In this document: positions 62,269 to 64,000 of the stretch, in pieces
Layout: each line of letters opens with the position of its first letter
Position numbering within the stretch: position 1 is the first letter of the stretch
Virus record (IMG/VR): IMGVR_UViG_3300042549_004948
Location: 64,001 to 128,000 of that record
Source: a virus
Length of the DNA stretch: 64,000 nucleotides
Direction: 5' to 3' (one strand)
Notes under the pieces: generated by a model
Databases searched by the model: none
What the model was told of the DNA's origin: nothing
Seen by the model: the letters and a program-made list of their open reading frames with translations, nothing else
Program-made: the position numbers and the translations under genes

Positions 62269-62916
62269 TTAATTAAACATGTCGTAATGTCTTGGATAGA
62301 TATGTAAGTTTGTTATAAAGAAATGCATTTGACCTACAGGATATCCGGTTCTGTAAGATACGTGTTCCATAAGTTTAGCAAATGTGTATTGATCATTACA
62401 GAAGCCAAAGACAAGATCGATAGATCTAGCAAATATAGTTAATTCTAGCTTACCGTCTTTAATATAAAAATTAAGTACATCATTACACGGTGTATCATAT
62501 TTGTATCTGTCTAACTCATGCAAAATGTAGTGAACTATAATAGCTCGTCTAGTTTCTTTATTTAGCTTTAGATCATTGACAACGCGATTAAGTTGATCGT
62601 TGTAATTCCAAAAGTATCCATAATTAGAATTAACTTCTGTAGTACCTGGTACCATCATTTGATTCCAGATCTTGGCACGTTCACCTATTTCTTTTGCATC
62701 ACGATCTCCTTTACGATACCATTCCCATTCGTATTCTGCATAGTCTTGATTAAACTTACGCTTTGGTGAAGTAATTACTTTTTGTGTAGGATCTTGTATA
62801 GTGAATGATGAATTAAATATTGCTTTGGTACCTGCAAAGTCTTCACCTTTGTCAATGATGTAGTGAAACAGATTCTCGAATGCACTGGTTGGTGTAATGT
62901 ATTTTTTAGTCTCCAT
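62269..62916 (-). CDS. thymidylate-synthase-family enzyme, dCMP hydroxymethylase (T4 gp42)-like
   Basis: EVNSNYG, RR, catalytic PC, RSIDLVFGFCND (Asp at E. coli TS Asn177 position), LHIYPRH. Confidence 0.88.
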   Translation of the reverse strand: METKKYITPTSAFENLFHYIIDKGEDFAGTKAIFNSSFTIQDPTQKVITSPKRKFNQDYAEYEWEWYRKGDRDAKEIGERAKIWNQMMVPGTTEVNSNYGYFWNYNDQLNRVVNDLKLNKETRRAIIVHYILHELDRYKYDTPCNDVLNFYIKDGKLELTIFARSIDLVFGFCNDQYTFAKLMEHVSYRTGYPVGQMHFFITNLHIYPRHYDMFN

Positions 62917-63307
62917 ATTGTTCTACTTCTATAAACTGTTTAAGAAAGTTAACGCCTTCTAAATTACGATACTGATTCAAATATACAACTCTTTTTATTC
63001 CTGATTGCAAAATAACTTTGGAGCAGTCTAAACAAGGACTAAGTGTTAAGTACAAAGTGGAACCATCTACAGAGTTGCCTGTCTTGGCTGCTTTAATAAT
63101 TACATTTATTTCAGCATGGATAACATGAGGTAGAGTGACATTATCTCTCTCGCAACAATTGTCCATACCAGAAGGAGTCCCATTATATCCAAAACTTATC
63201 AAGTTGCCGTCTTTAACTAAAACTGCGCCTACCTTAGATCGAACGCAGTGTGACAGAGTAGATGTTTCTTTTGCTATGTTTATAAATACTTTGTCTAGTT
63301 TATTCAT
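62906..63307 (-). CDS. dCMP deaminase
   Basis: Likely start MNKLDK; S.C.R.KVGA, GYNGTP, HAE.N, SPC..C. Confidence 0.95.
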   Translation of the reverse strand: MNKLDKVFINIAKETSTLSHCVRSKVGAVLVKDGNLISFGYNGTPSGMDNCCERDNVTLPHVIHAEINVIIKAAKTGNSVDGSTLYLTLSPCLDCSKVILQSGIKRVVYLNQYRNLEGVNFLKQFIEVEQYGD

Positions 63308-63308
63308 A

Positions 63309-63737
63309 TTATAATCCAGTTGAACCGAACCCTCCTGAACCTCTTTCTGTATTTCTAGATTGTAATTCTTCAACTTCCTCTACATCAAAATAAGCAACAG
63401 GAATTAATACAAACTGAACTAATTTTTGTCCTGTGGCAATTATTTGAGGCATATCTGAAGTATTAATCATGTGTAAATGAACTTCTCCTTCATAATCTTC
63501 ATCAACAACACAAGCGCCAACAGAGAGACCTTGTTTTACTGCTACTCCTGATTTATTAAATGCAATCAATGCATAACCTCTAGGAACTTGAACTTTAATT
63601 CCTGATGGAATTAATACTGACTCTCCTGGTTTTAGTGACACTGTTTCAAAATCTTCTGGCACATAGAAGTCTATTCCTGCTGATGAAGATGTTCCTCTAT
63701 TTGGTGTTTTTACGTTTCGTAACTTTTGTAGTTTCAT
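63309..63737 (-). CDS. dut: trimeric dUTPase
   Basis: AGIDF, KSG, VDEDYEGE, KLVQ, RGSGGFGSTG. Confidence 0.95.
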   Translation of the reverse strand: MKLQKLRNVKTPNRGTSSSAGIDFYVPEDFETVSLKPGESVLIPSGIKVQVPRGYALIAFNKSGVAVKQGLSVGACVVDEDYEGEVHLHMINTSDMPQIIATGQKLVQFVLIPVAYFDVEEVEELQSRNTERGSGGFGSTGL

Positions 63738-63999
63738 TTTGTAAATCATTTTGGTAATCATTTAGTGAAGCCATATATGCAACACAATCTAGGAGATTGT
63801 CCTGTTTATGGTTATAAGCCTGTCTCGACAACTTAAGTGCAATCATACAGTTGTACATATCAACTGCAGTTAACTCTTTACGGCTTAATAACGATGCAAT
63901 CTTGGCAGCTTCTTGCATACCGTCTTGCATTGGCCCATATTGACGGGCCTTTTCTTCAGATCTCTTGTAGATGATCTCGTTTGCTTGTTCAAGTATATT
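63697..63999 (-). CDS. DUF6378-like protein (5' end beyond window)
   Basis: Open to window edge: ILEQANEII..R...RQYG...MIALKLSR....HK.DNL.D..AY. Confidence 0.7.
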   Translation of the reverse strand, partial: NILEQANEIIYKRSEEKARQYGPMQDGMQEAAKIASLLSRKELTAVDMYNCMIALKLSRQAYNHKQDNLLDCVAYMASLNDYQNDLQNETTKVTKRKNTK

Positions 64000-64000
64000 C

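Follow-up and report, generated by a model that had tools for sequence, protein, structure and literature searches.

In the present study, we analysed a 64,000-nucleotide stretch of viral DNA (the window), which corresponds to bases 64001-128000 of the 162,469-bp IMG/VR virus record IMGVR_UViG_3300042549_004948, rated 95% complete. A gene of the thymidylate synthase (TS) family, located at window positions 62269..62916 on the minus strand, encodes a 215-amino acid (aa) protein that source databases label as thymidylate synthase. Judged by its residues, the protein carries the signature of a folate-dependent dCMP hydroxymethylase of the T4 gp42 kind, and not that of a dUMP or dCMP methylase or of a 5-hydroxy-dCMP synthase; it is thus predicted to be a dCMP C5-hydroxymethylase, that is, a synthase of 5-hydroxymethyl-dCMP (5hmdCMP). 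We consider it fairly probable that 5-hydroxymethylcytosine (5hmC), made by this gp42-like enzyme, is processed in DNA by the products of a cassette of linked genes to a hypermodified cytosine that has not been described, is probably amino-acid-derived and arises with no DNA kinase. From the observed fold, residue signature, conservation, synteny and coexistence with ThyA in relatives, we infer the substrate, the product, the incorporation into DNA and all of the tailoring steps.

Residue Signature and Conservation of the TS Homologue

The 215-aa protein matched the Pfam family Thymidylat_synt (PF00303) with an E-value of 5e-24. Its best solved relative was the dCMP hydroxymethylase gp42 of T4 (EC 2.1.2.8; PDB 1b49, 1b5d, 1b5e and 6a9b), which has the same fold, and residues 54-213 were aligned to 1b49 with an E-value of 7.7e-17. 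In both the HMMER and the MAFFT alignments, RSIDLVFGFCND (query residues 164-175) corresponded to RSNDVVFGFRND in T4 and to RSCDVFLGLPFN in E. coli. Query Asp175 therefore fell on E. coli Asn177 and T4 Asp179, as the first-pass annotation of this DNA had proposed. The residue alignment consisted of 264 sequences, including E. coli ThyA, T4 gp42 and RB69 gp48, and the query residues D141, C144, N145, D167 and D175 occupied E. coli positions 143, 146, 147, 169 and 177, respectively (E. coli numbering is used for these positions hereafter). The catalytic Cys144 aligned with E. coli C146 and T4 C148; Asp141 stood three residues before the Cys, like T4 Asp145; and Asp167, within the motif RSID, kept E. 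coli Asp169. The key residues of the query were E63, W84, Y99, R123, R124, D141, C144, N145, R164, S165, D167, D175, H205 and Y207, and the nucleotide-binding residues E58, W80, Y94, R126, R127, R166, S167, H207 and Y209 were all kept. T4 gp42 residues E60, W82, Y96, R123, R124, D145, C148, R168, S169, D171, D179, H216 and Y218 all had identical counterparts in the query. The resemblance to gp42 noted earlier was also borne out in two motifs, with EVNSNYG (94-100) matching EINSNYG of T4 and LHIYPRH (204-210) matching LHVYSRH. The protein stopped at the equivalent of residue 217 of 264 in E. coli ThyA and of residue 226 of 246 in T4 gp42, and the closing C-terminal tail of ThyA was absent, again as first noted.

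A 2026 study of phage TS homologues has summarised the residue rules and put one of them to the test: N177 or D177 selects dUMP or dCMP, methyl products are associated with a bulky residue at position 143 and hydroxymethyl products with an acidic residue there, and D169N is the mark of flavin-dependent 5-hydroxy-dCMP synthases, nine such variants having been tested (PMC13326640). At positions 143/169/177, the query showed the pattern D/D/D, which is that of T4 gp42, compared with E/N/D in RB69 gp48, L/D/N in E. coli ThyA and D/D/N in an M6-like dUMP hydroxymethylase. The query lacked all of the canonical ThyA features (Asn177, Leu143, His147 and the tail), carrying D, D and N at the three positions, and its scores against the NCBIfam thymidylate-synthase equivalogs were 27-71 bits, compared with cut-offs of 108-576. 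By the residue rule, Asp at position 143 did not agree with a dCMP methyltransferase of the Xp12 type, which combines Asp177 with a bulky hydrophobic residue at 143. Similarly, the Asn at position 169 that characterizes 5-hydroxy-dCMP synthases (RB69 gp48, DLP3 gp80) was absent, the query and all close homologues having Asp there. The combination D143/C146/D169/D177 was present in 120/120 homologues with at least 77% identity and in 131 of the 137 representatives of 50%-identity clusters; thus, Asp at position 177 is not a chance variant.

Phylogenetic Position and Coexistence with ThyA

In a maximum-likelihood tree with gp42 and ThyA, the comparison put forward in the first-pass annotation, the query was placed inside a clade of approximately 215-aa D/D/D enzymes with a Shimodaira-Hasegawa-like approximate likelihood ratio test (SH-aLRT) value of 97. 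This clade was nested in a superclade (SH-aLRT 99) containing T4 gp42, RB69 gp48 and the dUMP hydroxymethylase, and E. coli ThyA and the second TS of relatives of the phage were placed outside the superclade. The query was not sister to gp42 itself, and the branch path from the query to the nearest rows beyond its own clade was 1.6-1.9 changes per column.

No other TS homologue and no ThyX was found in the 162-kb record. In 12 close relatives, a second TS with the canonical residues L143/C146/H147/D169/N177 was located 2-4 kb downstream of the Asp-type gene. Since these relatives carry a separate canonical ThyA, the Asp-type enzyme is not their thymidylate synthase, and the two enzymes have different jobs, like gp42 and td in T4. 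These results agreed with the earlier suggestion that thyA has been lost from this phage. The residue signature, the conservation, the tree and the coexistence with ThyA in relatives together supported the assignment of the gene as a cytosine-specific, gp42-like enzyme. The slot of thyA in this phage (window 58192-60410, minus strand) was occupied by a gene for a 484-aa DUF1501 protein (E 6.9e-156) and by two small open reading frames (ORFs); the former is an auxiliary gene in a phage, at the site of the canonical thyA of the 12 close relatives.

Linkage of the TS Homologue to a Conserved Cassette

On the minus strand, the gene order from 5' to 3' was DUF6378 (101 aa; window 63697..64000, with its start 2 nt past the window end), dUTPase (150 aa; 63309..63761), dCMP deaminase (133 aa; 62906..63307) and the TS homologue. 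The overlap of the TS and deaminase genes (11 nt) and the presence of dUTPase and DUF6378 upstream, which had been noticed at first reading, were confirmed by the ORFs and Pfam. Further upstream lies the DNA running past the window end (L002; window coordinates are obtained by adding 62000 to those of L002), in which the DUF6378 gene occupies L002:1697-2002. Directly upstream of it, and outside the window, a gene for a 295-aa pyridoxal phosphate (PLP) enzyme of fold-type II was found at L002:2039-2926, followed by genes for a 347-aa protein with a helix-hairpin-helix (HhH) base-flipping fold at L002:3629-4672 and a 311-aa protein with an SGNH-hydrolase domain at L002:4674-5609, all on the minus strand. 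Between the HhH and PLP genes, a 227-aa predicted lipoprotein with a signal peptide ending in Cys was encoded at L002:2935-3618 (minus strand); this insert occurred only in this phage and some close relatives. None of the four genes upstream of DUF6378 (311, 347, 227 and 295 aa) gave a match in Pfam. The SGNH/HhH/PLP trio, which lies past the edge of the DNA read in the first-pass annotation, provides the TS homologue with its strongest context.

We scanned IMG/VR with the 347-aa family and obtained 80 loci; with 3 more from protein look-ups, the set comprised 83 loci (at least 83 viral contigs), and the linkage counts rest on the 33 loci with enough flank. The SGNH, HhH and PLP genes were colinear in all 83 related loci. 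Beside this trio, a TS gene was present in 33/33 well-flanked loci, DUF6378 in 31, a deaminase in 23 and a dUTPase in 19. The cassette-adjacent TS genes came from different lineages, including 215-aa forms, a 323-aa form and one near T4 gp42, and D143/C146/D169/D177 was found in all 66 that were full-length. In two near-complete cassette genomes (70.5 kb at 98% and 38 kb at 100%), no PF00383 deaminase was detected, and the sole TS was of the Asp type. No P-loop motif was found in the cassette genes. The literature searched contains no account of such a cassette, lacking a kinase and tied to a hydroxymethylase of the cytosine type, and the TS alone is a known enzyme type; the searches also found no named amino-acid-type cytosine hypermodification. 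On a separate 61-kb contig with the trio, a 330-aa protein with a uracil-DNA glycosylase domain and a faint thymidylate-kinase-like region (L011:2965-3957) was encoded directly upstream of an Asp177 TS.

Predicted Folds of the Upstream Trio

The model of the 347-aa protein was all-helical, with a predicted local distance difference test score (pLDDT) of 94. With an exhaustive structural aligner, the best match was DUF2419/QNG1, a queuine-salvage enzyme (Z 8.9), followed by PUGT, the PaMx11 5-phosphomethyl-dU (5-PmdU) glycinyltransferase (Z 8.6, 210 residues aligned), and then by a coherent series of HhH-GPD DNA glycosylases. In the nearest protein-atlas clusters of this protein, HMUDK_hel, the helical domain of 5-hydroxymethyl-dU (5hmdU) DNA kinase, was present in 11-36% of members. 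A Foldseek search of the model against the PDB returned nothing at E <= 0.001, profile comparisons with a PaMx11-type transferase homologue and with the kinase-like gene beside it showed no similarity, and no homologue was found in any of 50,697 phage records.

In the model of the 311-aa protein, an alpha/beta domain at the N-terminus was combined with an SGNH-hydrolase domain, and Foldseek matched the model to sialate O-acetylesterases with a probability of 1.0; GDSH, Asn186 and His297 were invariant. The 295-aa protein matched phrog_7093 (E 1.4e-27), one of its homologues matched PF00291, and its invariant Lys57 aligned with the PLP-binding lysine of cysteine synthase; on these sequence grounds, we assign it to the fold-type II PLP enzymes. 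The only matches of this PLP enzyme in cultured phages were in Erythrobacter phage ZS04 (L093:2326-4764), KY006853.1 and PP438422.1, where they formed part of large genes carrying the annotation DNA methyltransferase or ParB. This arrangement suggests that in cultured phages the PLP domain is fused to DNA-modifying proteins.

Proposed Pathway and Points That Weigh against It

In the proposed mechanism, the TS homologue would act as gp42 does. Cys144 would attack C6 of dCMP, Asp175 would read the N3/N4 face of the cytosine, and methylene-tetrahydrofolate would supply one carbon. The exocyclic methylene intermediate would then be hydrated rather than reduced, because Asp141 takes the place of Leu143, which excludes water, and the protein has no closing C-terminal tail. 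The predicted reaction is dCMP + methylene-tetrahydrofolate + H2O -> 5hmdCMP + tetrahydrofolate. The product would be phosphorylated, probably by a host kinase, and then incorporated into phage DNA, replacing the cytosine partly or completely. The co-transcribed dUTPase would remove dUTP and thereby keep uracil out of the DNA. The deaminase would shape the pyrimidine pools by supplying dUMP to the host ThyA, since the phage thyA is lost, and may also act on part of the C5-modified pool. The TS homologue would thus be the entry step of a five-gene cassette made up of DUF6378, the SGNH-fold esterase/acyltransferase-like protein, the HhH base-flipping-fold protein, the fold-type II PLP enzyme and the TS itself. 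After replication, the SGNH, HhH and PLP proteins would tailor 5hmC, and the hydroxymethyl group would perhaps be activated by acylation.

Previous studies have reported that Asp177-type TS genes, and also their co-location with dCMP deaminase, mark contigs with modified cytosines (PMC8670742; 10.1101/2024.12.05.627091). We further put forward, tentatively and with less than even confidence, a more specific version of the pathway in which a widespread marine group carries an undescribed cytosine hypermodification: the gp42-like enzyme would install 5hmC ahead of replication, its activation in the DNA would be kinase-free (plausibly O-acylation by the SGNH protein), the HhH protein would carry out a substitution, and the PLP enzyme would supply or trim an amino-acid-derived group. 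If true, this would be the cytosine counterpart of the thymidine pathways of ViI and M6, with a new activation chemistry.

Several results weigh against the proposed pathway. For the TS homologue, position 147 was Asn, compared with Thr in T4 gp42 and His in E. coli ThyA, and the position-143 rule is a correlation rather than a proven determinant. For the 347-aa protein, the Z scores were within the range where helical proteins match by arrangement alone, and the hhalign probability with a homologue of the PaMx11-type transferase was below 1%; no match to PF18723 (HMUDK_hel) or PF18724 (ADDT) was found in the genome at E <= 1. QNG1, the top structural neighbour, acts on a mononucleotide, so that the tailoring could take place on nucleotides and not on DNA. 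In addition, no T4 gp1- or Tmk-type dNMP kinase and no MazG- or PRA-PH-type dCTPase was detected in the genome with Pfam, and phmmer searches of the genome with T4 gp1, RB69 p045 and the L011 kinase-like fusion gave no match. These negative results bear on the step from 5hmdCMP to the triphosphate and on the exclusion of dCTP.

Alternative Readings of the Locus

The first alternative, also listed in the first-pass annotation, is that the deaminase converts 5hmdCMP (or 5hmdCTP) to a 5hmdU nucleotide, giving 5-hydroxymethyluracil (hmU) DNA that the HhH and PLP proteins decorate as in thymidine hypermodification. The 11-nt overlap of the deaminase and TS genes and the loss of thyA in this phage are consistent with this route, and enzymes resembling the trio are known only on 5hmU (PMC8989533). 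The route is also chemically feasible: phage deaminases encoded next to a TS of the Asp177 type are able to act on 5hmdC nucleotides, with 5hmdU found in plasmid DNA (10.1101/2024.12.05.627091). However, 10 of the 33 well-flanked cassettes had no nearby deaminase, and the 70.5- and 38-kb genomes carried no PF00383 gene and only an Asp-type TS; such deaminase-free cassettes argue for a cytosine derivative as the substrate of the tailoring enzymes. Moreover, all 66 cassette TS genes had Asp177 over several lineages, although a direct dUMP hydroxymethylase would be a simpler route to hmU, and TS and deaminase pairs were enriched on contigs surviving modified-cytosine selection (PMC8670742; 10.1101/2024.12.05.627091). 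We consider this alternative unlikely.

It is also quite improbable that the phage makes glycosylated hmC in the T4 style, with sugars from a tightly packed cluster of about 22 kb (window 21304-43526, minus strand) attached by one of its glycosyltransferases and the trio having an unrelated role. The cluster encodes four GT2 and two GT1/4 proteins, UDP-galactopyranose mutase, three epimerase/dehydratases, a DegT aminotransferase, two methyltransferases and a nucleotidyltransferase-cupin fusion. Phage RL38JI uses UDP-galactopyranose mutase for its DNA glycans (PMC13326640), and in one close relative of the phage studied here, GT2 genes lie at a distance of 5 kb from the TS. On the other hand, the cluster lies 19-41 kb away from the TS, and its glycosyltransferases match general polysaccharide families, with no DNA glycosyltransferase family identified among them. 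The 38- and 70.5-kb cassette genomes are too small for such a cluster (the search for GT2 covered the 70.5-kb genome and gave a single gene), and it is the trio, not the sugar genes, that stays linked to the TS. Of the first proposal made in the first-pass annotation, namely that the phage DNA contains hydroxymethyl-, methyl- or hydroxycytosine, possibly glycosylated by the sugar cluster, only the hydroxymethyl form was favoured; the methyl form was opposed by Asp at 143, the 5-hydroxy form by the retained Asp169, and the sugar link was unsupported, as nothing ties the cluster to DNA.

A dCMP methyltransferase acting with the deaminase, which turns a 5-methyl-dC nucleotide into a dT nucleotide and so replaces the lost thyA, would account for Asp at 177, the adjoining deaminase and the loss of thyA in this phage. 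This Xp12-type route was at first regarded as unusual, but it has since been documented for Xp12-like methylases with deaminases turning 5mdCTP to dTTP (10.1101/2024.12.05.627091). It is nevertheless very unlikely here: position 143 carries Asp, which the residue rule associates with hydroxymethylases, instead of a bulky hydrophobic residue; the same gene coexists with canonical ThyA in the 12 close relatives; and genes of the tailoring type accompany it in all well-flanked loci. A 5-hydroxy-dCMP synthase that depends on flavin, like RB69 gp48, and would lead to glycosylated 5-hydroxycytosine shares Asp177 and an acidic residue at 143 with the query and would suit the large sugar cluster, but it is scarcely credible given that the diagnostic D169N is absent from the query and from 120/120 close homologues. 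Finally, an ordinary dUMP thymidylate synthase, the reading of the automatic annotation, would fit the PF00303 match, the database names and a position after two dUMP-producing enzymes, but is barely tenable in view of N177D, L143D, H147N, the missing tail, equivalog scores far under the cut-offs and the separate canonical ThyA of relatives.

A 561-aa TobZ/NovN-like O-carbamoyltransferase (L009:1213-2898, plus strand, equivalent to G000:C1:57451-59136; E 1.9e-51 to 9s2t) resembles the published 5hmC carbamoyltransferase in size, and we considered that it might act on 5hmC. It is located approximately 68 kb from the TS, inside another glycan operon. Since this is the context that MetaGPA has reported for unmodified contigs (PMC8670742), the enzyme was kept as a lead only.

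Neighbouring Genes and Genome Context

The record belongs to an uncultured, myovirus-like marine phage with T4-type baseplate, gp32, UvsX-like, PhoH, class II ribonucleotide reductase and family A polymerase genes. Its T9SS-type and DUF1501 genes, together with its relatives among Bacteroides phages, point to a marine Bacteroidota bacterium as the likely host. The small dCMP deaminase is of the cyanophage S-TIM5 type, with HAE and PCxxC zinc motifs, and matched the solved structures 4p9c (E 1.2e-36) and T4 cd 1vq2 (E 5.6e-27). The deaminase ORF is open up to a TTG at 63373, and an ATG at 63307 stands 2 nt after the dUTPase stop; the gene most likely starts at this ATG, giving 133 aa, rather than at the upstream TTG. 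Its 3' end overlaps the TS start. The dUTPase is of the trimeric type, has both motif 3 (DEDYEGE) and motif 5 (RGSGGFGSTG) in intact form, and matched PF00692 (E 1.3e-24) and TIGR00576 (113.7 bits, above the cut-off). DUF6378 (E 3.3e-13) is a near-constant member of the cassette. Sequence and profile searches of the PDB with it gave nothing, and the literature mentions its name only; a role as a MazG-like dCTPase was considered, without support.

Just upstream of the cassette, genes for a phage GroEL (E 6.3e-59; L002:6813-9369) and Hsp20 (L002:9495-10151) were found on the minus strand, and the stretch separating them from the family A polymerase gene contained a NUMOD-type homing endonuclease gene.

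Comparison with Known Systems and Significance

T4 gp42 is the known enzyme to which the TS homologue is most similar. In both phages a dCMP deaminase gene stands alongside, and a separate true TS is present in T4 and in the close relatives of the phage studied here. The query differs in being 31 aa shorter, in ending 20 residues earlier in the alignment and in belonging to a separate clade of approximately 215-aa enzymes. Furthermore, no homologue of the gp1-type kinase, the gp56-type dCTPase or the alpha/beta-glucosyltransferases of T4 was found in this phage.

The thymidine hypermodification pathways of M6, ViI, PaMx11, PhiW-14 and SP10 use a dUMP hydroxymethylase, a 5-hmdU DNA kinase, an amino acid:DNA transferase and a PLP decarboxylase (PMC5889632, PMC8989533, PMC11472151). 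The cassette resembles them in that a TS-family hydroxymethylase stands beside an all-helical HhH glycosylase-like protein and a PLP enzyme of the tryptophan-synthase-beta type. In contrast, the cassette TS has Asp177 instead of Asn177, an SGNH-fold protein takes the place of a P-loop DNA kinase, matches to the Pfam families ADDT and HMUDK_hel are absent at the sequence level, and DUF6378 is an extra constant member.

The TS homologue and deaminase also resemble the pairs described by MetaGPA in uncultured phages, in which an Asp177 TS lies within 3 kb of a dCMP deaminase (PMC8670742; 10.1101/2024.12.05.627091). Of the characterised pairs, some make 5mdC and use the deaminase to produce dTTP, and others are combined with a PRA-PH pyrophosphatase and a carbamoyltransferase. 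In the present phage, the signature is of the hydroxymethyl type, PRA-PH is absent, and the only carbamoyltransferase is the distant one in the glycan operon described above.

The closest cultured relatives are gp13 of Bacteroides phage BF503P4 and its relatives, with 44% identity. They belong to the same clade (215-226 aa), have D143/D169/D177 and lie near a dUTPase; unlike the phage studied here, BF503P4-type phages are 53 kb long and carry a second, divergent Asp-type TS homologue. The two TS homologues of BF503P4 (L003:5148-5909 and L003:7983-8663) both have Asp at 143 and 177 and flank the dUTPase, and one of them is very divergent (branch length 2.95). A gene of Agathobaculum phage AB434P2 (L008:181-843) is annotated as deoxyuridylate hydroxymethyltransferase, yet it has Asp at the N177 position, and judging from this residue the label is probably wrong.

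Modified bases decide the survival of phage DNA against restriction enzymes and CRISPR. They also render such DNA difficult to sequence or clone, and enzymes used in epigenetic sequencing have come from them. A gp42-like enzyme alone is ordinary; the point of the present analysis is the strict linkage of TS genes from several lineages to esterase-fold, base-flipping-fold and PLP genes in the absence of a kinase. This strict kinase-less linkage over at least 83 viral contigs predicts that abundant marine phages not yet in culture use a new chemistry on cytosine. The 'thymidylate synthase' labels, together with the assumption that aGPT-Pplase-like clusters modify thymine, may therefore misdescribe many marine phage genomes.

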